Below are positions 1,274-39,305 of a DNA stretch of 64,000 nucleotides, piece after piece (the first letter of the stretch is position 1; the number at the start of each line of letters is the position of its first letter). The notes below the pieces were generated by a model. The model was not told where the DNA came from, searched no databases, and worked only from the letters and a program-made list of their open reading frames with translations. The DNA is from a virus: IMG/VR virus record IMGVR_UViG_3300027763_000037, positions 1 through 64,000 of that record. One strand, 5' to 3'. Position numbers and translations under genes: made by a program.

Positions 1274-1461
1274 TGAAACAAACAAACGACAAAGACTCTT
1301 TACATAAACAAAACAGGGCTGAAAGAAATACTCAAAGAATTAAAGCAAAACCTAAAATGTCAAAGCAAGAAAGAATAGAGCAACGTATTCGTGAAGATAT
1401 AATTAGAACATCTCTAAATGAAATGGTTAAAGAAATTAATAACAAAGAGGCTAAGCAATAA
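1273..1461 (+). CDS. Small basic hypothetical protein
   Basis: ORF track; GTG overlapping the previous stop. Confidence 0.45.
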   Translation: MKQTNDKDSLHKQNRAERNTQRIKAKPKMSKQERIEQRIREDIIRTSLNEMVKEINNKEAKQ

Positions 1462-2071
1462 ATTTGTAATACTTACTGTATGTTTCTTGTATATCTTTGT
1501 GTGATTTAAGATACTTAACAATAGACTCGTAAGCGTCTGTTTTTGTGTGTGATTCAATTTGATTATGTATGTGAGAAGTCTTTATGTTTTCTTCTGCTAC
1601 CCCAGATTTTTTAAGAATATTTTTACAGAACAAGACAGGGTTATTTTCTAAATCAGAATATTTAACTTTAATAATTTTATTATTCAACTCAAGGCAATTA
1701 AGATAAGAATTGTATATCATTATTTGGTTATCTATAAAATTATTTTCACGAATACTTAGATTACTACCACTTTTAATCTGATCTTCATTTACTATAGACT
1801 TTCCTTCAATAACTCTTCCAACATGTCCAGAGAACCATCTATCAACATTATGAGAGATAGAGTCTATAGGATCTCTCAAAATGAAGTATGAATCTACATC
1901 TAAACCAAAGTCAGATAAAAGCATTATTGCTTCATGCTTCCATATTATCCATGAGTTGCCTTCTGGCATGTGATGATAATTCTCAGTTTGAGAATCTTTT
2001 ACCATACGAACACACATATCTGCTACAGACCATGCCCCAGAATTTGGGTAAGAATTAATTAATATTTTCAT
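1451..2071 (-). CDS. Sulfotransferase-like protein (paralogue 1)
   Basis: SYPNSG (5'-PSB-like loop), LRDPIDSIS (3'-PB motif), YSDLENNP. Confidence 0.65.
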   Translation of the reverse strand: MKILINSYPNSGAWSVADMCVRMVKDSQTENYHHMPEGNSWIIWKHEAIMLLSDFGLDVDSYFILRDPIDSISHNVDRWFSGHVGRVIEGKSIVNEDQIKSGSNLSIRENNFIDNQIMIYNSYLNCLELNNKIIKVKYSDLENNPVLFCKNILKKSGVAEENIKTSHIHNQIESHTKTDAYESIVKYLKSHKDIQETYSKYYKFIA

Positions 2072-2108
2072 ATATACATTGTATCAGTAGTAGTGTATAC
2101 TAATTATA
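2071..2108. promoter_or_regulatory. Back-to-back leaderless promoters for two sulfotransferases
   Basis: Minus TGATACAAT 2078-2086, 6 nt to ATG 2071; plus TATACT 2096-2101, 6 nt to ATG 2108. Confidence 0.65.
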
Positions 2109-2635
2109 TGCCTGTCGATTCAATTTATTTTTCAAACTATACAAGGTCTGGCCTTGCTTTTATGCAATATTTAATAACTCTTTGCCCAAATCTTCCTATG
2201 GGTCATGCCAGTCACGGAATTCAAACACGTCGGAGAACAATGACTGTTATAAGAAACCCTATGGATGTATGTGCATCATCAATTATAAATAATTATGATA
2301 ATTGTCAGGATATTAATCAAACTATTAAAGAAGAAGAACGCAAATATATAAAATTTTACAAAGAATTATTAAAACAAGATGATCTTATTGTTATAGATTT
2401 TAATGATCTTGTAGGCAGGCCAGAAGAAACTATGAAGTCTATTCACAAACTTTTAGATTTGCCGTTTTTAATGTATGATCGTGATAAAGATATGACATTT
2501 AATGAAGATGGTCACCTTCATACATCTAAAACACATCCTGAATATGATAGAATTAAGGATGCAGTTTATCAGATTACTCATACAAAGTCTTTAGAAATAT
2601 ATAAACAAACATTAGAAAGAGGGTTAAGAGTATGA
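2108..2635 (+). CDS. Sulfotransferase-like protein (paralogue 2)
   Basis: NYTRSG, IRNPMDVCAS, FNDLVGRPEETMKSIHKLLDL. Confidence 0.65.
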   Translation: MPVDSIYFSNYTRSGLAFMQYLITLCPNLPMGHASHGIQTRRRTMTVIRNPMDVCASSIINNYDNCQDINQTIKEEERKYIKFYKELLKQDDLIVIDFNDLVGRPEETMKSIHKLLDLPFLMYDRDKDMTFNEDGHLHTSKTHPEYDRIKDAVYQITHTKSLEIYKQTLERGLRV

Positions 2636-2727
2636 TAGTAGCACTAATAACATTTGCAGTAGGTTATATAGCCTGCTATTTTGTTATGACTTTTGGAATA
2701 AATAATGATAAGGAGAAAGATCAATGA
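2632..2727 (+). CDS. Small single-TM protein (31 aa)
   Basis: MIVALITFAVGYIACYFVMTFG...; ATGA overlaps at both ends. Confidence 0.5.
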   Translation: MIVALITFAVGYIACYFVMTFGINNDKEKDQ

Positions 2728-2909
2728 GTCTATGTACATGTGGATACTCCACTGACTACCCAGATTGTAATGGAACACACAGAGCAGTAAGAAGGCTAAG
2801 AGAAGAGATTGCCCAGGCTATTGAGGCTATAGACATAGAGTCTTCAGTAACAAACGCCGTGGGCACAAAAATCTTAGCAGCAAAGATAGCAAGAAATCAA
2901 AATGATTAA
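2724..2909 (+). CDS. CDGSH-type iron-sulfur domain protein
   Basis: CTCGYSTDYPDCNGTH matches C-x-C-x2-S-x3-P-x-C-D/N-G-S/T-H. Confidence 0.8.
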   Translation: MSLCTCGYSTDYPDCNGTHRAVRRLREEIAQAIEAIDIESSVTNAVGTKILAAKIARNQND

Positions 2910-2979
2910 TAGGATTATTTTTATAATAAAACAAAAGATTAAAAATAAAAAAATAAAAAAGGCAAAAAGAATATACTAA
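2902..2979 (+). CDS. Lys-rich micropeptide ending -RIY (25 aa)
   Basis: MINRIIFIIKQKIKNKKIKKAKRIY*; stop overlaps the ATG of the SGNH-like gene (TAATG). Confidence 0.6.
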   Translation: MINRIIFIIKQKIKNKKIKKAKRIY

Positions 2980-3881
2980 TGTCTTATGATGCTTTTAATG
3001 TAGAACTTAATCCATCAAAATTAATATATGGGCTTATGCAGCCACCCCATGACTATGTAAGTGATAAGTATAGTTATACTGTTAACAAAGATGGTTTTAG
3101 ATCTGTAGACTTTTTAACTAAGCCCCCGATAATTACCCTGGGATGCTCTATTACGTTCGGCACAGGGCTACCAGAAGGCTTTAATTGGCCATCACAGTTG
3201 CAGTCTTTGCTGGGCAAAGACAAGATGATTGGTAATCTTGGAGATCATGGATCATCAATAATGAAAAATATATCTCAGTTCTTTTCATTTGTAAAAAAAT
3301 ATAATTATCTTCCAGAATATCTTTTGTGTAACTTTCCAGACTTTCAAAGATTTTATTTTATTAATAAAAACTTAAATAATATGGAAAATCTTTTCTGGTT
3401 AAAAGAAAGCATAAAGACTAAGGGCACAGCGCCATTTGAATGGGATAAGATAGTTCCTTCTCAGTGGATTAATTGGTCTAACCTTGATCACATTAAAATG
3501 TTAGAGCAGTTTTGTTATTTTAATAACATAAAACTAATATGGACGACATGGTCTGATAATATTCCTGACGAACTTGAAGACTGTTTTGCTAAAGATTTTA
3601 TCTTTTATAAAAAAGATCCAACCAGAGAACTGTTTCCAAATGATTTTGAGTTTAACTTTGCAGTTGACAAGATAGATAATTTAAGAACTCATTACGCAAT
3701 TATAGATTCTAAATTAGATTGTCATAGTCAGGTTAGGGACAAAAATCAAGATGTATTTGATTTTGGATATGATCATGGAAATATTAATCCTCCATTTCAT
3801 CCACACCCTGGGTCGCATAGGCATGCACATTGGGCAGACTTTTTTTACAAAGAAATGGAGGGTATGACTAATGGCAATTAA
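2979..3881 (+). CDS. SGNH/GDSL-like acyltransferase/esterase (paralogue 1)
   Basis: NKDGFRS..F, LGCSITFG (block I Ser), NLG..G.S, C-terminal PHPG...H..WA. Confidence 0.7.
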   Translation: MSYDAFNVELNPSKLIYGLMQPPHDYVSDKYSYTVNKDGFRSVDFLTKPPIITLGCSITFGTGLPEGFNWPSQLQSLLGKDKMIGNLGDHGSSIMKNISQFFSFVKKYNYLPEYLLCNFPDFQRFYFINKNLNNMENLFWLKESIKTKGTAPFEWDKIVPSQWINWSNLDHIKMLEQFCYFNNIKLIWTTWSDNIPDELEDCFAKDFIFYKKDPTRELFPNDFEFNFAVDKIDNLRTHYAIIDSKLDCHSQVRDKNQDVFDFGYDHGNINPPFHPHPGSHRHAHWADFFYKEMEGMTNGN

Positions 3882-4614
3882 AGAAGAATATATTCCTGAT
3901 GGTATTGGGGCACAGTTATTTAGAAAGATTGTTGTAAAGTCTTATGCCGATGCCATTGGAGAAGAGTATTACAATGATCCTATTAAAGATTTTTTAATAC
4001 ATGAATCTGATAACATAAAAACAGAAGATGAAAAAAATAAAATTATAGAACAGTTTAACAATCTTATATCACACACAAATTCTAAAGATATGAATTATGA
4101 TATTAAAGAAATTAGTACAAATGAAATTAATTCTTCAATGCTTACTAACTTTAATTTTTTAAATATTGAAACAATTAAAGAAAATAGAATTGTCATACAT
4201 ATTAGAAGAGGAAATGTCATACCAACGAACCCTCGCTGGATAGATGAAGAAAGATATGTAGAACTTATAGAGAACATAGATAATATTTCAAAACTTTTTT
4301 CATTAGAAAACCCAGACATATTTATTTTGACAGATTCTCCAGTTAATACAAATAAGTTTAAGCCATATGAAAAACAAGATGATTACTGGAAACAAGAACA
4401 TCTTGTTGCTGATAGCAATGGAGAATATCCCTTAACATCAATTAATCCTGATAACTTTCCTAATGTTAAGATAATAAATAACATGGGTACGTATGAGTCA
4501 TTTCTTTTTATGCTTAACTCAGCAGTTATAGTTCCATCTTGGTCAGCATTTAGTAAAGCAGCATCATTGTTAACAAAGAATTCTTATGTTGACATCTTTG
4601 GCGTATTAGGATAG
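3871..4614 (+). CDS. GT11-like (alpha-1,2-fucosyltransferase-like) glycosyltransferase
   Basis: DGIGAQL, HIRRG GDP-sugar motif, C-terminal S.FS. Confidence 0.65.
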   Translation: MAIKEEYIPDGIGAQLFRKIVVKSYADAIGEEYYNDPIKDFLIHESDNIKTEDEKNKIIEQFNNLISHTNSKDMNYDIKEISTNEINSSMLTNFNFLNIETIKENRIVIHIRRGNVIPTNPRWIDEERYVELIENIDNISKLFSLENPDIFILTDSPVNTNKFKPYEKQDDYWKQEHLVADSNGEYPLTSINPDNFPNVKIINNMGTYESFLFMLNSAVIVPSWSAFSKAASLLTKNSYVDIFGVLG

Positions 4615-4617
4615 ACT
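4589..4617 (+). promoter_or_regulatory. Sigma70-type promoter for the tRNA cluster
   Basis: TTGACA(4589)-17 nt-TAGACT(4612). Confidence 0.55.
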
Positions 4618-4627
4618 TAGTCTATAA

Positions 4628-4702
4628 GCACCAGTAGCCAAGTTGGTTAAGGCACCGAACTCATAATTCGGCTATTCGTAGGTTCAAGTCCTACCTGGTG
4701 TA
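4628..4702 (+). tRNA. tRNA with CAT anticodon (Ile2 or elongator Met)
   Basis: Acceptor GCACCAG/CTGGTGT, anticodon arm CCGAA-CTCATAA-TTCGG, T-loop GTTCAAG. Confidence 0.9.
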
Positions 4703-4706
4703 CAAA

Positions 4707-4780
4707 GCGAGTGTTGCATAATGGTAGTGCATCATCCTTCCAAGTTGATTGTGCCAGTTCGATTCTGGTCACTCGCTCCA
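4707..4780 (+). tRNA. tRNA-Gly(TCC)
   Basis: Acceptor GCGAGTG/CACTCGC, loop CTTCCAA, GTTCGA T-loop, encoded CCA. Confidence 0.9.
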
Positions 4781-4781
4781 T

Positions 4782-4857
4782 ACCTCTGTAGTTCAGTGGA
4801 CAGAACGATGGACTTCTAAGCCATGCGTCGCAAGTTCGATTCTTGCCAGGGGTACCA
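4782..4857 (+). tRNA. tRNA-Arg(TCT)
   Basis: Acceptor ACCTCTG/CAGGGGT, loop CTTCTAA, GTTCGA, encoded CCA. Confidence 0.9.
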
Positions 4858-4875
4858 GTGGTATAATTAAATTAT

Positions 4876-5424
4876 ATGAAACTTTTGCTTGCTACCTATC
4901 CAAGAACTGGACAACATTTATTGCGTGATCATATATCACAAAAATTAAATGTTGAACTTGACCATACTCATGACTGCAGAATTAACACCTATGACAAAAT
5001 GATAACAATTGCCAGAGATCCAAAAGAGGCTATAGCGTCTTGGATGGCAATGGAACTACATCATGAAGATATTGAACCAACAAGAAAACCTCAGCCATTA
5101 GAGTTTTATGCTAAATCTGCTTCTGTTGAACATATTATTTTTCATAAATATGCAATAAGAAGTGCTTCAGAAGTCTTTGATTACACTCTTTTGAATAGCC
5201 ACATGGACAGTATCATTGATAAAATAAGTAAAAAGTTTAACATAGAAAAAACAAATGCAGAGTATGTAAATAGAATATCAGATACAAAAGGTAAGAAACA
5301 TATAGTAAGCAGTCAAAAAACAAAACATTACGAAGAAATTAAAAATTTTTTAAACTCATATGATTTATCAGAAAATTATAAGTTATATCAAGAATTATAT
5401 TCAATGTGTGCTGACTTAGGTTAA
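4876..5424 (+). CDS. Sulfotransferase-like protein (paralogue 3)
   Basis: TYPRTG, ARDPKEAIAS; own TGGTATAAT promoter at 4859-4867. Confidence 0.7.
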   Translation: MKLLLATYPRTGQHLLRDHISQKLNVELDHTHDCRINTYDKMITIARDPKEAIASWMAMELHHEDIEPTRKPQPLEFYAKSASVEHIIFHKYAIRSASEVFDYTLLNSHMDSIIDKISKKFNIEKTNAEYVNRISDTKGKKHIVSSQKTKHYEEIKNFLNSYDLSENYKLYQELYSMCADLG

Positions 5425-6528
5425 CTCTTTCCAATTAAAATCATAATTGTTTTTGTCTAAAATTGGGTAAGATTCATTATTGTTAATTCTTTTTTCATAC
5501 CAATCCTTTGCTTTTTTAAATAGTTCTGCCATATCAAACTCATTAAAATACTCTTCTGCAGATCTTGTTGCATGAGGCATAGAGTATCTATTCTTTTCAT
5601 CTAAACAAAAAAACCTATCAGCATGCTGTCTTTCAATAGTATCGTTGCCACAAAACTTTCCTCTAAAATATTTTACTGGGTACTTGCTATTATAAACTGT
5701 TTGATTATAATCAAAGTTATCATGACCAAGGTAGTGCTCAACTATGTTTGCATAGACATCCCATCCTGACATATAAGTGTATAAACTATCTATCATTTCT
5801 TCAGAAACAAATTGAGATCGAGAATCAAAGAGTGTATCTTCTATATATTCTTTTCTTGCAAATATGAAATTGCCTCCAACAAAACCAGTTCTTATGTATC
5901 TGTCATCAATTAGTTTTGCATCAGACAAAGGGTATTCTTTTGCTACCTGATTCATATTATCAAGCAATTCCCATCTTCTGTCTTCATCTAAAAGTATTGA
6001 TTTCTTTTCTGTAAACCTTGCATTCCATGCAAAACTTACACCATCCCTGTCTATCAAAGCATCTCCAGGATATTGATTTGTTTGTTGTGATATTATGACT
6101 TTCCCAGACTTAGATGCTTTGCTTAGTATTCTCAAGTCATTTTTTAATTTTGTGTCCCATCCCTCACAGAAGTGTGTATGAGAGTCTATTTGTAAAAAGT
6201 ATTCTTGAAATGTCATTAACTTTCTTAATACGTGCCTTATTCTAACAGTTCCAGGACGATTTTCTGCTGCACAATAAATTTTTATTATTTTTTGTGGATC
6301 TATAAACGATACATCTGGTATTTCTATTTTTTCATACTGCAGAGCAATACCAAAATATATCTTATCTGGGTTATCTGCATTGTCGATGATAGATTTAATA
6401 GTTCTAATAAGATATTGGTCATCATAAGAGGCTACGGATATATATATTGTGTCAGGTATTACAGACAAAGATTCTAAGATAGGAACTTCTCTTGTGTCTA
6501 TAATGTATGGATCTTCTACATATTCCAT
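5416..6528 (-). CDS. Skp1/Gnt1-type (GT60-like) GlcNAc transferase
   Basis: TIYISVASYDD, G..RIRH, YFLQIDSH..F...WD, GGNFIF, F.SEE, SGWDVY. Confidence 0.75.
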   Translation of the reverse strand: MEYVEDPYIIDTREVPILESLSVIPDTIYISVASYDDQYLIRTIKSIIDNADNPDKIYFGIALQYEKIEIPDVSFIDPQKIIKIYCAAENRPGTVRIRHVLRKLMTFQEYFLQIDSHTHFCEGWDTKLKNDLRILSKASKSGKVIISQQTNQYPGDALIDRDGVSFAWNARFTEKKSILLDEDRRWELLDNMNQVAKEYPLSDAKLIDDRYIRTGFVGGNFIFARKEYIEDTLFDSRSQFVSEEMIDSLYTYMSGWDVYANIVEHYLGHDNFDYNQTVYNSKYPVKYFRGKFCGNDTIERQHADRFFCLDEKNRYSMPHATRSAEEYFNEFDMAELFKKAKDWYEKRINNNESYPILDKNNYDFNWKELT

Positions 6529-6531
6529 AAT

Positions 6532-7296
6532 TTAGTTTTGTTTGCCTTTAGACACAACCGTAACGACTGCATGTTCATCAAAAAGATGCTCTACAAGATC
6601 TTCTTCAAGTTGTCTAATTACTTGACTATACTTTCCATGAACAATATTTTGGTTTTGCAATCCGCCGTTTATTACTAAGCAAACCTCTCTATCCTCATTA
6701 AAAATTTCTAACATTTCTTTTAATAGTTCTAATATATTATATCTATAGTGAAGCAAAACAAGAAGTTCTTTAATATCTTTTATTCTTTCCAGAGTTTCAA
6801 TTTCTTTTTGTGCTGCATCATTTTCAATAACGATTCCTTCTTCAATAGATGCACGAGTTGCATCATTTGCAAAAAATTCTTTTAGCATGTAGCCAGCCTC
6901 TCCAGACTCCATAGCAGAAAGAGCAATTGCTAATGGCGCTGCAGATGGGCCAGCAACAATAGAAACTTCATATCCTTCTGACCTGACTTTTCTTATAAGA
7001 GATGATCCTGGGTCTGCAATTCCTGGATAGCCCATATGCAATAACAGCATTGTATTCTTACCAGAATCAAGAATTTCTTTTGTTTTTGAGAATTGTTCCT
7101 CAAGTGTATAATCAAGAAAAACATCATAGTTTATTTTGTTTTGTATGTTTAGATTGGTCATATCTTTTAGCAATTGGTCTTCATGCTCTACCCATACAAA
7201 CTCTCCAGACTTTAGATAGTCCAGCACCTTTTGTGGTGTATCTGTTGGGTCTGTTAGATGATTGCAACCTATTATAAAAGTGCCGTTTTTATTCAT
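6532..7296 (-). CDS. RsmI-like tetrapyrrole-methylase-fold methyltransferase
   Basis: GYPGIADPG, VSIVAGPSA..LA..LS, DREVCLV. Confidence 0.7.
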   Translation of the reverse strand: MNKNGTFIIGCNHLTDPTDTPQKVLDYLKSGEFVWVEHEDQLLKDMTNLNIQNKINYDVFLDYTLEEQFSKTKEILDSGKNTMLLLHMGYPGIADPGSSLIRKVRSEGYEVSIVAGPSAAPLAIALSAMESGEAGYMLKEFFANDATRASIEEGIVIENDAAQKEIETLERIKDIKELLVLLHYRYNILELLKEMLEIFNEDREVCLVINGGLQNQNIVHGKYSQVIRQLEEDLVEHLFDEHAVVTVVSKGKQN

Positions 7297-7324
7297 AAGA
7301 TAATTGTAGCATATGGTGTATAAT
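7296..7324. promoter_or_regulatory. Divergent promoter pair
   Basis: Minus TGCTACAAT 7303-7311, 6 nt to ATG 7296; plus TATAAT 7319-7324. Confidence 0.6.
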
Positions 7325-7347
7325 TATAGTCTACAGATAGGGTCTAA

Positions 7348-8043
7348 ATGGCAAGAGAAATAGTTCCATCATTCATTGATTCATTCCCAGAACTACCGCT
7401 TAATCAAATTGAAGATGGTCATAAATTAGATCAAGATCAACTAAACAATACAAAACTTTATGCTTCAAGAGAAGAATACACAAAGCATCTTCCAAAAAAT
7501 ATGAGGTATATGGAGATAGGTGTTGCTTGGGGATATTACTCTGAGTTAGTTGCAGAAAATGCCAGCCCGAAAAGTATAGACTTGTTAGATTTTTATGATC
7601 TTGATCTTAAGTGTTGGTCATGGAGAAAGTTTGGAGAGTGTAAATGCGAGCCTGTTAAGCATGAAATGAAGTATACTCCAGAAACCCATGAGCCTTACAT
7701 AAAGGAATTGTTTAGTAAGTATAATAATGTTTCAACATTAAAAGGAAATGCAGTCGACATTCTTCCAGGCATAAACAAGGAATATGATTATATCTATATA
7801 GACATTTCAAATAAAAGGGATCAAACAAGAAAAGTTCTGAACTTATCTGCTGGACTTGTTCCCATTGGAGGAATAATTGGAATGAACGATTACTTGATCT
7901 TTGATGGTATTATAGAAGAGGCTCCTTACGGAACCTATCAAACTGTAAATGAATTTTTACACAAAAATAAAAATTGGTCAGTTACTGCGTTAGCACTGCA
8001 CAATCTTGGGTTTTACGATATATATATAAAAAGGGAGCAATAG
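7348..8043 (+). CDS. Class I SAM methyltransferase (Methyltransf_24-like)
   Basis: MEIGVAWG, YDYIYID, GGIIGMNDY. Confidence 0.8.
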   Translation: MAREIVPSFIDSFPELPLNQIEDGHKLDQDQLNNTKLYASREEYTKHLPKNMRYMEIGVAWGYYSELVAENASPKSIDLLDFYDLDLKCWSWRKFGECKCEPVKHEMKYTPETHEPYIKELFSKYNNVSTLKGNAVDILPGINKEYDYIYIDISNKRDQTRKVLNLSAGLVPIGGIIGMNDYLIFDGIIEEAPYGTYQTVNEFLHKNKNWSVTALALHNLGFYDIYIKREQ

Positions 8044-8044
8044 C

Positions 8045-8983
8045 ATGGCTGGAAAATATGACATAAAGTTAAATGATGATGCAAATATTTCTGATGTATT
8101 CTTTAATGAGTTCGATCTGACATGGATGCATGGTATGCCAAAAGACAAAAGAACGTTTACAAAACTTCCAATTGAAAATATTTTCAGGGGTGGAGATGAT
8201 GGATCCGTTATATACAACTACAATCAAGACGGATTTAGATCTGACGAGTTTTCTAATCAGCATGGCAAATATCATATTTTGTTTAGTGGCTGCTCACAGA
8301 CTGAGGGTGTCGGTGGATCTATAGAAACAGTATGGACAAACATTCTTCACAAAGAACTTAAAGATCGTGGACTTGATGTTGGTGGTTTTTATACTTTAGC
8401 AAGGTCTGGCTATGGATGGCAAAAAATTATTTCACAATTTATGCTATACACAAAAAAATACGGAATGCCAACACATTTCTTTGTACTTATGCCAAACATA
8501 GGAAGGTTCTACCTATGGTCTGAAGAAAGAAATAATTGGGTATATGTGCAAAGATACCCAGTAAATACTGACTATGATGCAATCAATGATTGGCGTAAAA
8601 AGCATGAATCTGAAGAAGTTCCTGAGCCTTCGAGGTTTGAAGAGCAAAAGTTGTCAGTTAAAGAACATAGAGAAAAGTTTTTAGATTTTGTTATAGGATG
8701 GAAACTTTTTTCAGAATACTGCAAAGCCAATAACGTTAAATTAGTTTGGTCTTCTTGGGACTATGCAGAATCAGATAACTATTCATTGATTAAAAGCAAT
8801 GAGTTCTTTCCGTTAAATGAAAGTAATGAGATCGAATCTTTCATATCAAAGAAAAGACCAGACCTAAAACTTGAAAAATATGACTTAATAAGAAGAGATG
8901 GGCACGATGGAGTTCTTTGGAATGAGTATTGGGCTGAAAAGTTTTTAGAAAAAATAGATGAAAGGGAGTTATTCAATGATTAA
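8045..8983 (+). CDS. SGNH/GDSL-like protein (paralogue 2)
   Basis: NQDGFRSDEF, ILFSGCSQTEG, C-terminal RDGHDG...N..WA. Confidence 0.7.
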   Translation: MAGKYDIKLNDDANISDVFFNEFDLTWMHGMPKDKRTFTKLPIENIFRGGDDGSVIYNYNQDGFRSDEFSNQHGKYHILFSGCSQTEGVGGSIETVWTNILHKELKDRGLDVGGFYTLARSGYGWQKIISQFMLYTKKYGMPTHFFVLMPNIGRFYLWSEERNNWVYVQRYPVNTDYDAINDWRKKHESEEVPEPSRFEEQKLSVKEHREKFLDFVIGWKLFSEYCKANNVKLVWSSWDYAESDNYSLIKSNEFFPLNESNEIESFISKKRPDLKLEKYDLIRRDGHDGVLWNEYWAEKFLEKIDERELFND

Positions 8984-9056
8984 AAAGATTAAGATGTGGT
9001 TCAGAATAAGAAAGATTAAAAAGCAGATCAATAGAAAAAGAGATTTTATTTATTAA
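8976..9056 (+). CDS. Lys/Arg-rich micropeptide ending -DFIY (26 aa)
   Basis: MIKKIKMWFRIRKIKKQINRKRDFIY*; SD-like AAGGGAG upstream; start overlaps the end of the SGNH gene. Confidence 0.65.
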   Translation: MIKKIKMWFRIRKIKKQINRKRDFIY

Positions 9057-9537
9057 TAAGTTGTATTTTTACTATGTACCTATGAGTTGTATATCTTGAT
9101 TCATCGACTTCATCTTTTTCTGAAATTAACTCAAACTCGTTTGTTTGAGGAAGGAAAATAAGCAAAGGTTCGTTCTCTTCTTTTAAAGAAGAAACAAGAA
9201 ATTCATCATTTGTTTGTACTATTACTATAGACTCAATATTTTTTTGTTCTTTTATATGGGACCAAAAAGCCATACACTTTGCTAAGCCAAACCACATATT
9301 GTTATTAATTTTTCTTGAATGTTTTTCAAACTCAGTAATTCCTTCATCATATGGACTTGGTTTATCTTCTGTTCTTAATATATAGATATGTCTAAACGGT
9401 TCTTCTGTCCATAAAAACCCTTCACTTTCAAATCCTTGTTGTAATATAATAAAAAACTTCTCTGGCTCTTCAAGTGCAAGCGGAAAAAAGTTTCTATTAA
9501 GATTTGATTGGGTTTGCTTTGTCATTTTTAATTTCAT
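9046..9537 (-). CDS. Hypothetical protein
   Basis: ORF track 163 aa. Confidence 0.55.
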   Translation of the reverse strand: MKLKMTKQTQSNLNRNFFPLALEEPEKFFIILQQGFESEGFLWTEEPFRHIYILRTEDKPSPYDEGITEFEKHSRKINNNMWFGLAKCMAFWSHIKEQKNIESIVIVQTNDEFLVSSLKEENEPLLIFLPQTNEFELISEKDEVDESRYTTHRYIVKIQLINK

Positions 9538-10274: not shown

Positions 10275-10679
10275 ATGGTAGTAGAAACAATGCTGGGTCT
10301 TTTAGATGACCCATTCTTTAATCGATTCAATCAAACAGTTAGAACAACAAATAACAACTATCCACCTTATAATGTAATTAGGGTTGGAGAAGATCTGTTT
10401 ATTTTGGAGTTTGCTCTAGCAGGTTTTGATAAGAGCGAGGTATCAATCATAGTAGAAAATAATCAACTAAAGGTCACTGGACAGAGGTCTGAGGTTGAGG
10501 AGGATGACTCTGTAGTATTTTTACATAAGGGTATTGCAGCAAGAAAGTTCTCAACAGTATTTAACTTGCCAGAATATATGGAAGTTGGATCAGCCCTATT
10601 CTCGAACGGTATCCTAGAGGTAACTCTAGAAAAGCATGTACCTGAAGAGAAGAAGCCTAAAACTATTGAAATTCAGTAG
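10275..10679 (+). CDS. hsp20: Small heat-shock protein Hsp20 (IbpA-like)
   Basis: YPPYNV, LEFALAGF, FLHKGIAARKF...F.L, A...NGIL. Confidence 0.95.
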   Translation: MVVETMLGLLDDPFFNRFNQTVRTTNNNYPPYNVIRVGEDLFILEFALAGFDKSEVSIIVENNQLKVTGQRSEVEEDDSVVFLHKGIAARKFSTVFNLPEYMEVGSALFSNGILEVTLEKHVPEEKKPKTIEIQ

Positions 10680-10837: not shown

Positions 10838-11557
10838 ATGGATCAAGGAAAATTAGCAGACAAAGAAAATAGTGTAACGTCAAGCAGAAAAGGCAATAAG
10901 TTTAAGTATGAAAGCCCTTTTCCAGGAATGCATATCTATAATGATGTGTGGCCCGACTCAATGGATTTCTTTAGGAAAGTTGAAGAAGATACATTTTGGG
11001 AAAATAATGATAGAAATAAAGTTAAATGGCAAAGAGAGGACTATCTTGATGCTGAGGTAGGCAAAAAAGCCTACACATGTTGGGTATGGCATGATGAAGA
11101 TGTTCAAAAAAATCTTGAAGAAGTTATAGATTCTTATCTTTGGCATTGGGACCTTGATCCACATAGTCGTGAGTCTTTGAGAATCACAAAGTATTCTCCA
11201 ACTGGAGAGTTTTTTGGTATGCATCCTGATGACTCTTTTGCTACACCAAGAACTACTGCTTTAGTGTATTACCCAAACGATGACTATGAAGGTGGAGAAC
11301 TTGAATTTTTACATTTTGGTGTTAAGATAAAGCCAAAGGCTGGGCAGTTATTTTTATTTCCTGCTGCCTATAGTTATGAGCATAAAATTCATCCTGTTAC
11401 TGGTGGAAATCATAGATATACTCTCGTTACCTTTTTTAATCAAGGAACAGAGAAAGAAAGACAAACAAGAAGCAACATGATAAGTAAAAATAAATTTTAT
11501 ACTGCAAACCTTAAATATGTTCTTTCTCCAGAATTTGGAACTGTTGAAGAAAACTAA
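10838..11557 (+). CDS. 2OG-Fe(II) oxygenase, prolyl-4-hydroxylase-like
   Basis: HPD, YYPNDDYEGGELEF, distal H, RYT. Confidence 0.85.
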   Translation: MDQGKLADKENSVTSSRKGNKFKYESPFPGMHIYNDVWPDSMDFFRKVEEDTFWENNDRNKVKWQREDYLDAEVGKKAYTCWVWHDEDVQKNLEEVIDSYLWHWDLDPHSRESLRITKYSPTGEFFGMHPDDSFATPRTTALVYYPNDDYEGGELEFLHFGVKIKPKAGQLFLFPAAYSYEHKIHPVTGGNHRYTLVTFFNQGTEKERQTRSNMISKNKFYTANLKYVLSPEFGTVEEN

Positions 11558-28850: not shown

Positions 28851-30982
28851 TTGTTCCTCCTTATCATTGCCCCTGCAATTTGTGATACGATGATTACTGG
28901 GACAATTACTTCTTGCGCTTTCTCTCTCTGATCGTCTGTCATATCCATACCTAATTCAGAGAAATTAGATAGGAGTTCTACTGGGTCCACTGCGAAGACT
29001 GCTCCAAGTGGGTCTGCTAAAAATGCTTCTGTTTGTACTTCTGTTACTGCATCTGCCAATGTAAAGGGCATTGCAGTTTCTCCTGCCTCTGCTTCTCTAT
29101 CATTAAACTCAACAAATGCTTCAGCAAGTGCTGGGTTAGACTTCATCTGCTCAGCAATCTGTGCAACTTCTGAAGGCTTAATACCAAGGTCTTGTGCAAC
29201 CTCAGCCTTTGCTTCTTGAGTCAAGGCTCTGAGTGTTTGGCTAACTGCTGTTATTTGTTCAGCAGAAAGAGTAACTAACTTATTATCCTTGCTTGTAAGG
29301 TTAGCAATAACATTAGATAGATCTTCTTCTGTTCCAGTTCCCTTTTCAGGAATCAGTGCTGCTAAAACTGCATCAGTAATTTCTACATCTGGTTCATTCC
29401 AAGGGTTCTCTTCTGGCTCTGGCTCTGGCCCAGGTTCTGGTGAAGGTTCTGGAGCAGGCTCTTCAGTTGTCTCTGGAGTTGGTTCTGGAGAAGGCTCAGG
29501 GGTTGGTGGTTCCTCTGGGGTAGGCTCAGGAGTAGGTTGGTCTGTAGGGTCCACTGTAGGCTCTGGAGAAGGCTCTGGTGTAGGAGGCTCTTCTGCTGTA
29601 GGTTCAGGGCTTGGTTCTGGTGTTGGTGGTTCCTCAGCAGTTGGTTCTGGACTTGGCTCAGGAGTAGGTGGCTCTTCAGCAGTTGGCTCTGGGCTTGGTT
29701 CTGGTGTAGGCTGATTGGCTGCAGCATTTGCTGCTGCTTGAGCAATAGCAGATTGAATTTCTCTTTGTGACTGCTCGTCATAGTAACGCCATGCGTTATC
29801 AATTGCACTATTGAGATTATTAATTGCTTGCTCGTATCCATCTTCAGCATTATTTTTATTTTGCAATGCCGTTGCAACATTTAAAACTGAGTTATTATAT
29901 TCGTTTGTTTTATTAGTTAAGGTTTGATTGTAACCATTTAATGTTGAAACTGCTTGGTTATAAACATTTAGTTTATCATTGTATACATCTTGGGCTGCGT
30001 TCTTTGCAGCGAGTGCATTGTTGTAGTCGTTGGTCTGTTCTTGTGTTGCTCCAGATCCAGAAGAAAATGTGTTTAGATTACAACTAAAGTTTTGTCCCCA
30101 CACTCTTGGGTTTCCAGCATAGTCGCAACCTGCACCAGTCCAACCTAAACTTCCAGATGAATCATATGGTATTCCCCATCCAAGATGATAAGATCCTGGT
30201 CCCCCACCGTTATACCACCAAATTTCTACATCAAATGTTTTATCTGTGGTTACATTATATATTGGAGAATATTGACTCCATGTTGTTCCCTGTTCCTTCC
30301 AGTTATTAATGGCAAGGTTTCCATCAATATACATCCTAAAACCATCATCTGTGTAACCTGCAAATTTTGTTGATGTGAACCATTCTGGAACTGTTATCTG
30401 TCCAGTAAATTTAACTATAAAGTTTTCATATCTATTACCACAAACTGGACGAGTCATGTAGTTTCCATTTAGTGTTCCACTACATAAGAATTGATCTGTG
30501 GCTGCAAGGCCATCAACCCTGATTAAACTATAAACATTGTATGATAAACCAGCACCACCAGTATTATTTAATGCTTGCTGAGCAGTTGATAAATTAATAT
30601 TTGCTACACCAAGAGCATCGTAGGCATTGTTCTTATTAGTTAGTGCAGTTGCTACTGTCACTGTTTGTCCGTCTACTGCTGATTGGGCTAAGTCTTTTTC
30701 TTCAAGTGCCGTTGCTTTTAGGTCAAGGGAGTTGTCATACAGGTCAGAGGTTTGAGACTGAGTTGATTGTGCAGATACTGCAAGGTCATACTTGTCTTCT
30801 GCCTCTTCAATTAAGGATATGAATTCATCCTTGTAGCCAAGGTCGTCAATGCTATCGTTAAGATCTTGGATTTCTTGGGCTGCAACTGTGAGGGGATCAT
30901 CAGAGTGTGCACCTTCTGGGGACATAAGAAGCCAGCCAAATGCTAATAGTGTGGCTGCTAGTATGCGTATTAGTCTTTTAAT
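28847..30982 (-). CDS. Surface-exposed PA14-domain protein with coiled coils, Pro/Glu/Thr stalk and C-terminal anchor
   Basis: PA14 F.V.FTG.I...TDDG.R..IDG; signal peptide only if translation starts at ATT 30982; C-terminal hydrophobic segment then RRNK. Confidence 0.8.
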   Translation of the reverse strand: MKRLIRILAATLLAFGWLLMSPEGAHSDDPLTVAAQEIQDLNDSIDDLGYKDEFISLIEEAEDKYDLAVSAQSTQSQTSDLYDNSLDLKATALEEKDLAQSAVDGQTVTVATALTNKNNAYDALGVANINLSTAQQALNNTGGAGLSYNVYSLIRVDGLAATDQFLCSGTLNGNYMTRPVCGNRYENFIVKFTGQITVPEWFTSTKFAGYTDDGFRMYIDGNLAINNWKEQGTTWSQYSPIYNVTTDKTFDVEIWWYNGGGPGSYHLGWGIPYDSSGSLGWTGAGCDYAGNPRVWGQNFSCNLNTFSSGSGATQEQTNDYNNALAAKNAAQDVYNDKLNVYNQAVSTLNGYNQTLTNKTNEYNNSVLNVATALQNKNNAEDGYEQAINNLNSAIDNAWRYYDEQSQREIQSAIAQAAANAAANQPTPEPSPEPTAEEPPTPEPSPEPTAEEPPTPEPSPEPTAEEPPTPEPSPEPTVDPTDQPTPEPTPEEPPTPEPSPEPTPETTEEPAPEPSPEPGPEPEPEENPWNEPDVEITDAVLAALIPEKGTGTEEDLSNVIANLTSKDNKLVTLSAEQITAVSQTLRALTQEAKAEVAQDLGIKPSEVAQIAEQMKSNPALAEAFVEFNDREAEAGETAMPFTLADAVTEVQTEAFLADPLGAVFAVDPVELLSNFSELGMDMTDDQREKAQEVIVPVIIVSQIAGAMIRRNK
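29400..29712 (-). repeat. Degenerate 42-bp coding tandem repeat (PTPEPSPEPTAEEP)
   Basis: Three identical 14-aa units plus degenerate copies, with synonymous DNA variation. Confidence 0.9.
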
Positions 30983-31086: not shown

Positions 31087-32280
31087 TTACTTAACGTAAG
31101 TAACCTTTGCCTTTGGATTCTTTGCATTCCACTTCTTTGCAAGTGCATTGAAAGCATCCTTAATTGACTTAAGTGCAGCAGCATTGTCTGCTGTTAACTT
31201 AGCGATAGTTGCATCCTTAGCAAGGACAACTGCATCTGAAGCAGTCTTTGCATCAGCAAGTGCCTTAGCAAGAGCAGCATCTGAAGCAGTCTTTGCATCT
31301 GCAAGTGCCTTATCTGAAGCAACCTTAGCAGCAACTGCATCTGCAGTAGCCTTTGCAAGGGCAGCATCTGAAGCAGCCTTAGCAGCAACAGCATCTGAAG
31401 CAGCCTTTACGACTGCAGCATCTGAGATTGCTTTAGCAGCAAGGGCTGCATCCTTAGCAGCAGTTTGTGCTGCAAGTTCTGATACTAGATCACGAACTGT
31501 GATTTCTGCAAACGGTGCTAGTGCACGAGCAGGAAGACCAACTACATCAGCAGTTGTTGCATCTCCAGCAGTTGTAGGTGAGAATGTGATTAGTGATCGT
31601 GTTCCAGTTGCTGGAAGTGTTGCAACAAACTTTGCAACTCCAAAATCTGAAAGTGTAGCACCAGTTGTTACTGTTGCTGTATCCATAACTGCTGTTGAAG
31701 CAAACACTGTTGCAGTGATTGACTTAGCAGATACCTTGTTGCCAAATGTATCTGTTGCAGTTACTGAGATGTCTTGCTTTGTACCAGCAGCACCAGCAGA
31801 AGGAGCAGATACTGTAAGAGTATTAATCTTACCAGCAGTTCCCTGTACGTAGTATGTAAGTGTTGTACCCTGATTTGTGATTACAACTGTACCAATTGCT
31901 GTTGTCTTTGTGTAGACATAAAATGTTGCTGTTGTTCCTGTACCAGTTGCAATTGTCAAAGATGATGATCCTGATGTTGCTCCTACTGGTGCAGCAGTTG
32001 TGTGTAGTGCAGACACGATTGTTGCATTTGTTGCTACGACTGAAACGCTTGTTCCAACATCAACTGTTGCAATAAACTTTAGTGCGTCAGCAGCATCTAC
32101 TGAGTTGTCTGCAGGGACTGGTAGTGATGCAGGCGTTGCGATTGCTGATGCTGTAGTGTTTGCTACAGTGTCAAGCGATACAGCGACTGTCATTACAGCA
32201 GCGTTTGCAGGCGTTGCTACGATTGTGCCAATCGTCATGGCTGCAACCATGGCTAGGGCGATTTTCTTAAATGAATTCAT
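31087..32280 (-). CDS. Secreted Ala/Thr-rich surface (S-layer-like) protein
   Basis: Signal peptide MNSFKKIALA...ANA; Ig-like TDTFGN; C-terminal KAASDA repeats; SD AAGGAG. Confidence 0.8.
   Translation of the reverse strand: MNSFKKIALAMVAAMTIGTIVATPANAAVMTVAVSLDTVANTTASAIATPASLPVPADNSVDAADALKFIATVDVGTSVSVVATNATIVSALHTTAAPVGATSGSSSLTIATGTGTTATFYVYTKTTAIGTVVITNQGTTLTYYVQGTAGKINTLTVSAPSAGAAGTKQDISVTATDTFGNKVSAKSITATVFASTAVMDTATVTTGATLSDFGVAKFVATLPATGTRSLITFSPTTAGDATTADVVGLPARALAPFAEITVRDLVSELAAQTAAKDAALAAKAISDAAVVKAASDAVAAKAASDAALAKATADAVAAKVASDKALADAKTASDAALAKALADAKTASDAVVLAKDATIAKLTADNAAALKSIKDAFNALAKKWNAKNPKAKVTYVK
31215..31465 (-). repeat. Coding repeats K(A/T/V)ASD(A/K)xxA
   Basis: Recurring gcatctgaagcag units on the plus strand. 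Confidence 0.75.
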
Positions 32281-37159: not shown

Positions 37160-37168
37160 GCTGTACTC

Positions 37169-37954
37169 CTAGTAACCAGTTGTTGGAGGGACAACATTAT
37201 CACGAATTGCGTCTTCATTATACTGTTGCCATGCTTTTTTAAAATCTTCTCGTTCATTTAATGTCTTTGAGTAGTTTGCCCTTGCTTCACCATTTTTAAC
37301 TGGATCAATTGGATTAGTTAGTCCAGTAAATCTGTAGTTGCTGGTTGGGCAATAGTCAAGACTTAAAATTTCCAGAAACTCTCCTTCTTTCCAATTTCTT
37401 TGTGGTCTCCAGTGAATCTGATTTACAGCAGAAAAAATAATTGTTTGTCCAGGAGCAAGTGAGTATGTTTTGCCATCAATGATTAGGTCCCACACAATGT
37501 TGGAACCAAAATTGGTGTTTACTGTAATGAGGTTTTCATCTGCGTCAATGTGTGGCGGTAGCATTGGGTTATTTTTGCCCTCAGAAAAATCTAAGTTGTA
37601 TTCAATATAATTATAGTGGCAAAGAGCAATGTCTCCATTATAGAGTGGCTTAACAACATTATCAACTTTTTCTTCAATATGTTTTGGCATTATAAATTCA
37701 ATAAGTTGTCTAGACATATGAGTAATATTTTTTGGTCTAAATCTTCCTGCAGGAGTTGGATCTTCTTCATGCTGCTCATTTGGTCTATAAAATACTGGCT
37801 CAAGAGATTTTCCGTGATCAAAAATTGCACGAAGTTCTTCTGCATCTTCTAAAGTATAAATATCATCTGCATAAAATGGAAGTTCTTTGTTATATTTTTC
37901 CATTGTTGTTAGATATTGGTGCATTGGAGCGTTTTCTCTTTGTTGATTTTCCAT
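37169..37954 (-). CDS. 2OG-Fe(II) oxygenase-like (HWRP type, copy 1)
   Basis: LPPHID, W.L..D, FS..NQIHWRP. Confidence 0.75.
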   Translation of the reverse strand: MENQQRENAPMHQYLTTMEKYNKELPFYADDIYTLEDAEELRAIFDHGKSLEPVFYRPNEQHEEDPTPAGRFRPKNITHMSRQLIEFIMPKHIEEKVDNVVKPLYNGDIALCHYNYIEYNLDFSEGKNNPMLPPHIDADENLITVNTNFGSNIVWDLIIDGKTYSLAPGQTIIFSAVNQIHWRPQRNWKEGEFLEILSLDYCPTSNYRFTGLTNPIDPVKNGEARANYSKTLNEREDFKKAWQQYNEDAIRDNVVPPTTGY

Positions 37955-37957
37955 TTT

Positions 37958-38698
37958 TTATCCTCTTGTCTCGTTTTGTTTAATGCTTTGCTCTGCTTCA
38001 ATTCTGTTTCTTTCTTGCTCAAAACTATTATTACTTTCTTTATTTTGATATCTCATGGTGTCTGTAGATCTTATATCAGAATTAGAAGTCCATGGCTCAT
38101 CATTTTTTGACCACTCAGTCCATCTTTCTAATCCTATACGTCTCATATTATTGATATGTTCTACTGTTAAAGGATCTTCCATTCCTACAACTTTAAAATG
38201 ACAGAATATCATTTCCATATATTCTCCATCAATAAACTCTCTAACTGGTCTCCAATGAACTTGATGTGTGCCAGAAAATGTTAGAGCCTGATTATCTTTT
38301 AATGTGTAGGTTGACTCGCTACCAGAATTATCTACAGTTACGCCCCAGTCCATATTTGCCTTTAATTGTATGTCTAGTGTTATTCTTGGTGAATCAAATG
38401 CTTCGTCTGTATGAGGAAACAGCAAAGGCCAGTATGTATATTTTTGACAATTTGATTTTGTCTTTTCATATCTAGAAAAGTTGTACTCTGATAAAACTAC
38501 TTGTCTTCCATACATGTTACTAACTAGGTCTTCAAGTTTCTTTTCAATTTCTTTAGGAAGTTCTATATGCCACGTATTATATCCAAGGCTTTTTACAAAG
38601 TCTGTTTCTTTTGTTGATGAAACTATATTGTATATATCAGAAATTTCTTTTTCTGTAAATACTGTTTTTACTACTACATTTGCCAATTTATTTAACAT
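37958..38698 (-). CDS. 2OG-Fe(II) oxygenase-like (HWRP type, copy 2)
   Basis: LFPHTD, TLD.QL..N.DW, FSGTHQVHWRP; start ATG 38698. Confidence 0.75.
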   Translation of the reverse strand: MLNKLANVVVKTVFTEKEISDIYNIVSSTKETDFVKSLGYNTWHIELPKEIEKKLEDLVSNMYGRQVVLSEYNFSRYEKTKSNCQKYTYWPLLFPHTDEAFDSPRITLDIQLKANMDWGVTVDNSGSESTYTLKDNQALTFSGTHQVHWRPVREFIDGEYMEMIFCHFKVVGMEDPLTVEHINNMRRIGLERWTEWSKNDEPWTSNSDIRSTDTMRYQNKESNNSFEQERNRIEAEQSIKQNETRG

Positions 38699-39305
38699 GG
38701 TGTTCCCCATTTCTATTCTGTATTCCATTATAAATATTATTAATCTTTTTCCTATGACTTTCTTTTGTGTCAAGTCGTAAATCAAAATATAGCATTTTTA
38801 CATACTCTCCATCATTCCAAATCCTCTTTGGCCTATAGTGGCTATATTCTAAAGGCTTTAAAAATAATGCAGAATTATCTTTAATAAAATGTAGTTCATC
38901 GTCAACTCCTATTGCCCAGTCTACTGTAGATTCTAACTGATAGTCTAGTATTAGAGAAGCCTTTCCTCCATCATAATGTGGGGCTAAGTCTGGAGTTCCA
39001 AATTTTGGATTATACTCTCCGTAAGTAACTGTATCATTCATTAAAACATATTCATTATTAGATTCTTTATCATTAACAATTGCATATATTTTTTCAATAA
39101 TATTTATAGGTATTTGAATTCCAGAGCATGTGGATCTTCCAAGTTGCTCTTGAATTTTTACTATTGTATCTACATAGGTATATTGACCATGGACTTCATC
39201 TATCCATTCAACATGCTCTCTCTTTGAGAGTTGCTCACTTATTGCCTGCTTCAGTTGGGCAACCTCTTCTTTAGAAAATACATTTTCAATGACTAATGAG
39301 TTCAT
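38688..39305 (-). CDS. 2OG-Fe(II) oxygenase-like (copy 3)
   Basis: LAPHYD, LDYQL.S..DW, HYRP; leaderless promoter 6 nt upstream. Confidence 0.75.
   Translation of the reverse strand: MNSLVIENVFSKEEVAQLKQAISEQLSKREHVEWIDEVHGQYTYVDTIVKIQEQLGRSTCSGIQIPINIIEKIYAIVNDKESNNEYVLMNDTVTYGEYNPKFGTPDLAPHYDGGKASLILDYQLESTVDWAIGVDDELHFIKDNSALFLKPLEYSHYRPKRIWNDGEYVKMLYFDLRLDTKESHRKKINNIYNGIQNRNGEHHVK

Follow-up and report, generated by a model that had tools for sequence, protein, structure and literature searches.

Inventory of tailoring genes

The DNA analysed here, hereafter the window, is the first 64 kb (64,000 nucleotides) of the 111,921-bp IMG/VR phage record IMGVR_UViG_3300027763_000037. Between positions 1451 and 39305 we identified 24 supported genes for tailoring enzymes. 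A density of approximately 24 such genes in approximately 52 far exceeds chance, and in the whole genome tailoring accounts for approximately 29 of 139 genes (about a fifth). The set joins hydroxylating, glycosylating, sulfo-, carbamoyl-, methyl-, and acyl-type chemistries. An initial annotation of this DNA had described a toolkit of about 20 decoration enzymes, and nearly every item that it listed was backed by Pfam, PHROG, and NCBIfam scans together with paralogue detection. The firmest assignments are the carbamoyltransferase, GT60a, the tetrapyrrole-methylase-fold enzyme, two PF13640 oxygenases, the Asp/Asn hydroxylase, and the APS-kinase domain at the N-terminus of a fusion protein. It had also remarked that the enzymes have no obvious signal peptide, which was borne out by the lack of any transmembrane-like or signal-like hydrophobic stretch in the toolkit enzymes, all of them soluble. 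Beyond the window, the genome holds another PF13640 oxygenase, two more oxygenases, a GDP-sugar epimerase, and a possible fucosyltransferase, the last matched by the O-FucT model at an E value of only 0.03.

The record has a GC content of 36.7% and a CheckV completeness of 100%. Its replication genes encode a DnaE-type polymerase, RecA, a DnaB-like helicase, and a primase, with the polymerase 54% identical to those of Streptomyces phages such as BillNye, and the phage also encodes a ribonucleotide reductase and portal, protease, and capsid proteins. Because it encodes a WhiB-family protein (13423-13704, E 3e-12), the record is read as an uncultured, lake-type actinophage, and its GC content suggests a low-GC freshwater actinobacterium as the host. 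Megablast found no cultured phage with closely related DNA. In metagenomes the lineage is abundant; at least 599 stretches were confirmed as relatives through a DnaE search, and a related carbamoyltransferase was found on 583 viral contigs.

All results are computational. Domain assignments are drawn from scans of approximately 60 window proteins against the three libraries, with paralogues detected by BLASTP and families compared profile to profile in a targeted hhalign run. For comparison among relatives, 15 further near-complete genomes were fetched, giving 16 in all (this genome is designated G000), and were scored with hidden Markov models (HMMs) built from the family alignments. Nine of the 16 were reached via the carbamoyltransferase itself and the genomes are mutually related, so that Fisher values computed from them overstate independence.

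The GT60b and DUF6065 cassette

A run of genes on the minus strand combines two oxygenases, a glycosyltransferase, two DUF6065-like proteins, and a further family, U257. The first oxygenase, 2OG-a (22186-22857), is a prolyl/lysyl-hydroxylase-type 2-oxoglutarate (2OG)/Fe(II) enzyme that scores 60-62 bits against PF13640 and has the collagen lysyl and prolyl hydroxylases LH3 and P4H as its best PDB matches. The second, 2OG-b (22838-23443), matches PHROG 61 and is of the prolyl-hydroxylase type, its family profile retrieving from the PDB P3H1 (5e-14), the B. anthracis P4H over the full length (4e-13), a chlorovirus-type P4H (2e-8), and PHD2 (4e-5), with Tet at 0.05. Peptidyl prolyl hydroxylases are thus matched better than Tet by approximately 11 orders of magnitude. 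The H-x-D...H...R motif is invariant in the P4H-type oxygenases, and the best score against Tet_JBP (PF12851) was 15.3 bits for a cut-off of 34.9, compared with 62 bits against PF13640.

The glycosyltransferase-like gene, GT60b (23469-24329), has only a weak match to PF11397 in Pfam, and profile-profile comparison links it to the family of the window's other GT60 gene, GT60a, with an hhalign probability of 97.8% and an E value of 1e-12. It is followed by D6065a (24322-25089) and D6065b (25086-25808; 32% identical to D6065a and matching PHROG 7084 at E 3e-43), then by U257 (25795-26466), an obligate member of the cassette by its co-occurrence with GT60b. U257 had no match in any library scanned, and a PDB profile search and the ESM Atlas gave nothing usable for it.

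Both DUF6065-like proteins named in the initial annotation were supported, with the correction that they have a dUTPase-like fold. The AlphaFold 2 model of D6065a (pLDDT 78) has a dUTPase/dCTP-deaminase fold, and Foldseek as well as an all-against-representatives search matched it only to dUTPases and dCTP deaminases. The 22 best chains spanned Z scores of 9.0 to 4.8, with the next match at 3.1, and the root-mean-square deviation was 2.7 over 122 residues at Z 9.0. In profile comparison, the G-I-V-[DE]-S-D and I-x-Q-x-I stretches of the family align with motifs III and IV of E. coli Dut, while in the model a long helix takes the place of the C-terminal motif V arm. The residue C67 is invariant. 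The dUTPase model PF00692 gave no match to the D6065 proteins, and a PDB sequence-profile search for DUF6065 returned nothing useful. A homologue search recovered 5,862 relatives, all of them without names; homologues lie in approximately 50 haloarchaeal tailed viruses, beside thymidylate synthase and DNA polymerase, and also include gp43 of phage Syn9. From the modelled structure, a dUTPase/dCTP-deaminase fold together with a conserved cysteine seems to characterize the DUF6065 family (PF19541).

This fold is among the features that would suit hypermodification of DNA or nucleotides, in which an oxygenase would hydroxylate thymine, another base, or a precursor handled by the dUTPase-fold proteins, and the GT60-like, carbamoyl-, methyl-, sulfo-, and acyl-transferases would decorate the product and so protect DNA from host nucleases. 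Motifs III and IV are kept, the haloarchaeal-virus homologues adjoin nucleotide and DNA genes as described, and a canonical dUTPase was not found in the phage. Moreover, ribonucleotide reductase is a neighbour of the oxygenase arrays and recA of one trio, neighbourhoods of dioxygenase, glycosyltransferase, O-methyltransferase, and epimerase genes are typical of post-replicative hypermodification (10.1101/2023.12.21.572611; PMC13229309), and a phage carbamoyltransferase of the NodU/TobZ type makes 5-carbamoyloxymethylcytosine (PMC8670742). Against this, the oxygenase profiles favour prolyl hydroxylases over Tet by the wide difference given above, and Tet_JBP scores stay far under the cut-off. 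No homologue of ThyA or ThyX and no C5-methyltransferase was found (PF00145, PF00303, and PF02511 found no match at E values up to 10 across the whole genome), whereas the proven carbamoyl-cytosine enzyme co-occurs with a ThyA homologue. GT60 also falls outside the JGT-like/T4-like class of glycosyltransferases reported for DNA, and hydroxylation of a single base needs no 10 to 20 oxygenases. We consider a DNA or nucleotide substrate rather improbable.

Additional oxygenase families

In addition to the two cassette enzymes, five oxygenases occur in the window, making up the seven 2OG/Fe(II) oxygenases of the initial annotation, all of which were supported. A prolyl-hydroxylase-type enzyme, 2OG-c, lies on the plus strand at 10838-11557 (PF13640, E 2.5e-12), and an Asp/Asn beta-hydroxylase-type enzyme on the minus strand at 16795-17385 (Asp_Arg_Hydrox, PF05118, E 2.9e-11). 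The other three, of the U371 type, form a tandem trio on the minus strand that adjoins recA (37169-39305) and are weakly related to the other oxygenases, as double-stranded beta-helix (DSBH) oxygenase-like proteins that share the motif H-x-D...H-x-R. Member 1 (37169-37954) carries H-x-D...H-W-R and aligns with 2OG-b in hhalign at E 4e-4; member 2 (37958-38785) has a true start that is probably downstream of the TTG; and member 3 (38688-39305) carries HYDGG...HYRP and matches members 2 and 1 by BLASTP at 1e-9 and 6e-7. In many relatives the divergent oxygenase-like genes beside recA are repeated in tandem, with three to five copies or more, which suggests rapid paralogue turnover at this site.

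A further family, U824, is encoded outside the window at 82485-83147 of the genome. Its AlphaFold model (pLDDT 85) is a DSBH oxygenase whose nearest structures are the uncharacterised marine proteins 2rg4 and 3bvc (TM 0.63), followed by prolyl hydroxylases, and the fold matches include the Dictyostelium Skp1 prolyl hydroxylase and the P. putida P4H. A PDB sequence-profile search for U824 gave nothing useful, and PF13759, a candidate family for U824 and U818, was not confirmed by HMM. Taken over the lineage, at least five DSBH oxygenase families are present (P4H-like a to d, AspH, U824/U818, and the U371 type). Each of the 16 genomes has between 1 and 20 oxygenase-like genes, and the share of toolkit genes among all genes ranges from 2 to 19%.

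Carbamoyltransferase, SGNH-like paralogues, and an APS-kinase fusion

A NodU/TobZ-family O-carbamoyltransferase is encoded on the minus strand (19781-21238), as the initial annotation had it, with 182 bits against Carbam_trans_C (PF16861) and 115 bits against Carbam_trans_N (PF02543). Its match to the NodU model NF041651 is 163 bits for a cut-off of 1000 and covers the C-terminal half only. Immediately downstream lies one of four SGNH-like genes (21208-22182, minus strand), a pairing that is conserved; the others lie at 2979-3881 and 8045-8983 on the plus strand and 26640-27509 on the minus strand. The four are true paralogues (BLASTP 1e-9 to 3e-26) and G-C-S-x-T-x-G and D-x-x-H-x-G are invariant across the family, so that the four proteins of the initial annotation stand as a family, with the SGNH label itself weak. 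PF13472 (SGNH) does not match them, and the profile matches in the PDB are two GDSL esterases only, at E values of 0.18 and 0.37, with nothing useful from a deeper alignment. By hhalign, blocks I and II align with E. coli TesA (E 0.015), and the nearest Pfam-carrying clusters in the ESM Atlas are GDSL/SGNH (0.93 to 0.87).

The carbamoyltransferase and SGNH-like genes co-occur in 13 of 13 genomes against 0 of 3, usually as neighbours. The pair also extends beyond this lineage. It recurs in Ralstonia phage RsoM2USA (genes 199-201), an unrelated jumbo phage, where two paralogues matching the SGNH-like HMMs precede a carbamoyltransferase that shares 43% identity with that of the window; all three genes are annotated as hypothetical.

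On the same strand, 17619-18386 encodes a P-loop domain resembling adenosine-5'-phosphosulfate (APS) kinase, fused to a small nucleotidyltransferase domain, which agrees with the fusion listed in the initial annotation. The APS_kinase model (PF01583) matches residues 2-85 with 61 bits for a Pfam cut-off of 21, covering only positions 4-91 of the 152-position profile, while the NCBIfam APS kinase match of 62 bits falls below the equivalog cut-off of 163. A cytidylyl/NMN-adenylyltransferase-like H-x-G-H domain occupies residues 150-231. The fusion keeps the P-loop (GLPGSGKTT), followed by the motifs LNAD, FICP, and RYQPWHEGH; LNAD and FICP presumably occupy the places of LDGD and FISP in APS kinases. 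It is near-core, being present in 13 of the 16 genomes with or without sulfotransferases, and for that reason a coupling of the fusion to sulfotransferases was rejected as unsupported.

The left-end island

The three sulfotransferase-like genes lie in an island at 1451-9537 that, in a comparison of the first seven genomes, was almost confined to this one. Two reach or exceed the Pfam cut-offs. The gene at 2093-2635 (plus strand) matches Sulfotransfer_3 (PF13469) at E 1.6e-6, with 29 bits for a cut-off of 27, and the borderline gene at 4876-5424 (plus strand) matches Sulfotransfer_1 (PF00685) with 22 bits, exactly its cut-off; the two are related by hhalign (85% probability, E 6e-6). The third (1451-2071, minus strand) has no Pfam or PHROG match and was assigned from the motifs YPNSG and RDPIDSIS, which resemble those that bind 3'-phosphoadenosine-5'-phosphosulfate (PAPS); a homologue occurs in G005. 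The initial annotation had counted three sulfotransferases, of which two therefore stand on family models and the third on its motifs.

Within the same island, GT60a (5416-6528, minus strand) is a firm member of its family (PF11397, E 4e-25, 89 bits), and both GT60-like genes of the initial annotation are thus retained, GT60b through its profile alignment. The gene at 3871-4614 (plus strand) had been called GT11-like. That identity was rejected, as PF01531 gave no match, leaving a weak resemblance to the fucosyltransferase superfamily (NodZ, PF05830, E 1.6e-4, 21 bits for a cut-off of 28.3). Of the two reported methyltransferases, the minus-strand gene at 6532-7296 is a tetrapyrrole-methylase-fold, RsmI-like enzyme (TP_methylase, PF00590, E 6e-14, 53 bits; TIGR00096 at E 3e-10, under its cut-off), and the plus-strand gene at 7348-8043 is a weaker, class I-like candidate that falls below the cut-off of Methyltransf_24 (PF13578, 20.9 bits for 26.3) and is conserved in G004-G006. 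Three tRNA genes (Met-CAT, Gly-TCC, and Arg-TCT) lie within this variable island at 4628-4857.

Mobility of the modules among relatives

Across the relatives, the cassette consists of 2OG-a, 2OG-b, GT60b, D6065a (with or without D6065b), and U257, plus one to three U824-type oxygenases, and its gene order is conserved. All 7 genomes with GT60b carry U257, and none of the other 9 does (Fisher 8.7e-5, subject to the kinship of the genomes), and the counts were 6/1/1/8 both for GT60b against U824 and for GT60b against D6065b. GT60b adjoins a DSBH oxygenase in all seven genomes that carry it, and GT60a adjoins one in G002 and G026. In this genome, G004, and G006 the cassette is split between the late/lysis region and a site between ribonucleotide reductase and an fn3/Phe-Pro repeat protein, whereas G005 has all of it at the latter site, directly beside the repeat-protein gene, and in G025 and G027 the U824 genes are inside the block. 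Sulfotransferase genes are interleaved with P4H-type oxygenases in G023, G025, G027, and G028.

Co-occurrence across related phages had been named in the initial annotation as one of the checks on its proposal. Some parts co-occur well beyond chance, and others come and go independently. The proposed swapping of paralogues between relatives is supported. A single combinatorial pathway is not, given that the sulfotransferases, GT60a, the fucosyltransferase-like gene, and the methyltransferases are gained and lost independently. The tailoring genes are semi-independent mobile modules, not one fixed pathway.

Such mobility could also mean that the genes share no substrate at all and are unrelated accessory functions collected in insertion hot spots, with the APS kinase serving sulfur assimilation and the oxygenases repair or stress. 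The near-uniqueness of the left-end island, the presence of the kinase fusion regardless of sulfotransferases, and the separate gain and loss of modules are in keeping with this, and phage cysC has been read as a sulfate-assimilation gene (PMC10914622). The interior of the modules speaks otherwise, with tight co-occurrence and conserved order, a cassette that moves as a block between two sites (G005 compared with G000, G004, and G006), a carbamoyltransferase/SGNH-like pair that recurs in an unrelated jumbo phage, and oxygenases repeatedly interleaved with GT60 and sulfotransferase genes. We give little credence to a collection of wholly unlinked genes.

Several other genes are found among the tailoring modules. 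These include an HSP20 small heat-shock protein (10275-10679), a staphylococcal-nuclease homologue (16378-16785), and a CHAP-domain lysin (19130-19765), while small transmembrane proteins at 28112-28623 may be holins.

Relation to known systems

The closest parallel is the array from gp43 to gp54 of Synechococcus phage Syn9 (Iyer, Abhiman, de Souza and Aravind 2010, PMC2938197), which, like the present one, combines tandem DSBH families with a conserved-cysteine dUTPase-fold protein. Our family HMMs match gp43 (D6065, 2e-14), gp47 (U824, 2e-7), gp50/51 (P4H-like), and gp54 (U371, 1.7e-7), and the Syn9 array directly follows tail-fibre genes. Several genes within gp46-gp54 that match DSBH families carry GenBank and PHROG labels such as 'DNA endonuclease V', 'ferrochelatase', and 'minor coat protein', which are probably propagated misannotations. 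The two phages differ in that Syn9 is T4-like with a cyanobacterial host, whereas the present phage is a DnaE-encoding actinophage. Moreover, the Syn9 array includes tryptophan halogenases and a JmjC-type member (halogenase Pfam models matched none of the scanned open reading frames (ORFs) of this phage) and is without GT60, carbamoyltransferase, SGNH-like, and sulfotransferase genes. By these family matches, the core of oxygenases and dUTPase-fold proteins is best regarded as a known but uncharacterised phage system, homologous to the Syn9 array. What is new is the presence and expansion of this core in an abundant actinophage lineage, its fixed association with GT60 and U257, the carbamoyltransferase/SGNH-like pair, and the optional sulfo, methyl, and fucosyl modules.

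The Syn9 array was itself read as secondary-metabolite or peptide modification (PMC2938197), and the present genes might likewise make or tailor a small molecule or peptide, or modify host components such as envelope glycans or translation factors in place of phage particles. Many distinct oxygenase families in tandem would fit such a role, as would the carbamoyl-, sulfo-, methyl-, and acyl-transferases, which are typical natural-product tailoring enzymes, and the U824 fold matches include a P4H relative known to hydroxylate EF-Tu (PDB 4iw3). Weighing on the other side, no enzyme that would form a scaffold (nonribosomal peptide synthetase, polyketide synthase, ATP-grasp enzyme, halogenase, or GT2 polymerase) was found among approximately 70 proteins scanned, neither an exporter nor a membrane-bound transferase that could act on the envelope is encoded, and GT60 members act on proteins. 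We view this alternative as unlikely, if somewhat less so than either a DNA substrate or a set of unlinked genes.

A second parallel is the cytoplasmic Skp1 pathway of Dictyostelium and Toxoplasma, in which the P4H PhyA, the GT60 enzyme Gnt1, and further glycosyltransferases including a fucosyltransferase act in succession (PMC3515798, PMC11570480). Shared with it are a P4H-type oxygenase beside a GT60, a fucosyltransferase-like gene, and soluble enzymes. The phage differs in having no Skp1 and no oxygen-sensing context, in its many paralogues, and in its added sulfo, carbamoyl, methyl, and acyl chemistry. Viral precedents for self-directed modification include the collagen hydroxylase and glycosyltransferases of Mimivirus (PMC9546862, PMC9614988), in which virus enzymes act on the virus's own structural proteins and gene sets vary between relatives; giant viruses add both hydroxyl groups and sugars to collagen-like proteins of their own (PMC9546862). 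In mycobacteriophages, too, self-encoded glycosylation of capsid and tail proteins is reported (Freeman et al. 2023, as cited in PMC12619734). Both of these systems differ from the present one in enzyme families, which here are GT60 and small P4H-like proteins.

Two further systems share single elements. The pathway described by Yang et al. 2021 (PMC8670742), from an environmental phage, employs the same Carbam_trans_N/C family to carbamoylate 5-hydroxymethylcytosine (5hmC). Its partners are a thymidylate-synthase homologue, a MazG-like protein, and a deaminase, none of which were found here, where the constant partner is SGNH-like. The Nod-factor pathway (NodABC with NodU/H/Z/L/S), to which the initial annotation had compared the toolkit, resembles it in decoration chemistry alone. 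Pfam models for GT2 (NodC-type), NodA, and NodB matched none of 50 window ORFs scanned, leaving no NodC-type synthase, and the matches to NodU and NodZ fall well short of their cut-offs.

Candidate substrates and proposed role

Named GT60 members are cytoplasmic protein O-GlcNAc transferases that act on hydroxyproline or threonine. Because the main oxygenases are peptidyl prolyl hydroxylases by type and adjoin a GT60, proteins are favoured as substrates. This bears on the suggestion in the initial annotation that the enzymes hydroxylate, glycosylate, and decorate virion or host-surface proteins; the protein part of it is favoured, while virion, host surface, and DNA are all possible targets. 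Decoration of proteins, most likely the phage's own appendage proteins, by mobile soluble modules is the best reading on account of the far stronger match to prolyl hydroxylases than to Tet, the failure to find a thymidylate-synthase homologue or C5-methyltransferase, and Tet/JBP scores under the cut-off. We hold it tentatively, at somewhat short of an even chance.

Under protein decoration, 2OG/Fe(II) oxygenases would hydroxylate residues, proline foremost, of proteins made in the infected cell, and neighbouring transferases would then cap those hydroxyls or the first sugar on them. Five modules may contribute to this. The first comprises the two prolyl-hydroxylase-type oxygenases of the cassette with GT60b, the two dUTPase-fold proteins, and U257, joined by two second-family oxygenases elsewhere in this genome. 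The second pairs the O-carbamoyltransferase with SGNH-like esterase/acyltransferase partners, and the third, the variable left-end island, brings three sulfotransferase-like enzymes, the second GT60, the fucosyltransferase-like gene, two methyltransferases, and two SGNH-like proteins. In the fourth, the near-core APS-kinase/nucleotidyltransferase fusion, which adjoins the Asp/Asn hydroxylase, could supply PAPS, and the fifth is the tandem trio of divergent oxygenases by recA. The likely outcome would be a variable surface chemistry of the virion. Family membership, co-occurrence within modules, and gene order are observed in the genomes, whereas what is modified, in which sequence, and to what end are inferred.

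The likeliest acceptors would be the fn3/Phe-Pro repeat protein and an Mtd-type fibre, both encoded outside the window, together with a collagen-like protein and a PA14 proline-repeat protein. The arrays of oxygenase and D6065 genes lie at most three genes from an fn3/FxFxP appendage gene and an Mtd-type fibre in 15 of the 16 genomes, the FxFxP proteins have [ST]-P and A-P dipeptides every eight residues, and a collagen-like run is present among the phage proteins. The PA14 protein (28847-30925, minus strand) was identified by PF07691 and its PTPEPSPEP-type proline repeats, and is put forward as a candidate substrate. Its 692 residues consist of a coiled N-terminal part, the PA14 domain, a stretch of approximately 110 residues with repeats of the PTPEPSPEPTAEEP type, and a C-terminus that is hydrophobic; the gene lies in a local 42% GC patch and is conserved near the cassette in most relatives. 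The 397-residue protein encoded at 31087-32280 is rich in Ser, Thr, and Ala, begins with a signal-peptide-like stretch, and ends in alanine-rich repeats; it may be a secreted or surface protein of phage origin. A comparable order of events has been predicted for bacterial neighbourhoods of hydroxylase, sulfotransferase, and PAPS-synthetase genes, which would hydroxylate and then sulfate tail-collar or collagen-like proteins (PMC2938197).

Several points weigh against the decoration of appendage proteins. The substrates are candidates chosen by inference, and their association with the cassette is loose: the FxFxP repeats and the GT60b cassette occur together in five genomes, the cassette without the repeats in two, and the repeats without the cassette in three, so that a strict link between them was rejected as a rule. 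The arrays also adjoin ribonucleotide reductase, and their position may therefore reflect a plain insertion hot spot. The nucleotide-binding motifs kept by the dUTPase-fold cassette proteins, and the placement of their haloarchaeal-virus homologues by thymidylate synthase and DNA polymerase, point to nucleotides, and one carbamoyltransferase of this family, also from a phage, has been proven to modify 5hmC in DNA (PMC8670742). A handful of virion proteins would not easily account for 1 to 20 oxygenase genes in a genome. Finally, the kinship of the relatives, nine of the 16 having been found through the carbamoyltransferase, means that the co-occurrence counts overstate independence.

In its most elaborate form, the decoration of appendage proteins would amount to a complete cytoplasmic hydroxyproline-O-glycosylation system of the phage, with P4H, GT60, and helpers including repurposed dUTPase-fold proteins, and with swappable sulfo, carbamoyl, methyl, and acyl modules that further modify the glycans, the whole coating repeat-rich tail appendages. 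It would bring protein chemistry resembling that of extensin and Skp1 to a bacterial virus, varying the surface properties of the virion. We regard this fuller scheme as doubtful.

Implications

It has long been recognized that aquatic phages are rich in 2OG/Fe(II) oxygenases, carbamoyltransferases, and sulfotransferases without an assigned function. The co-inheritance of such genes in compact modules turns a vague auxiliary-gene problem into a small number of assayable enzyme pairs and candidate acceptors. If the virion is the target, virus-encoded protein glycosylation would extend, in phages, to hydroxyproline-linked, sulfated, or carbamoylated glycans. If instead DNA is the target, the genes would represent a route of hypermodification without a Tet/JBP-family or thymidylate-synthase-type enzyme detectable by family models. 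Either outcome would give DUF6065 a context as a dUTPase-fold family.

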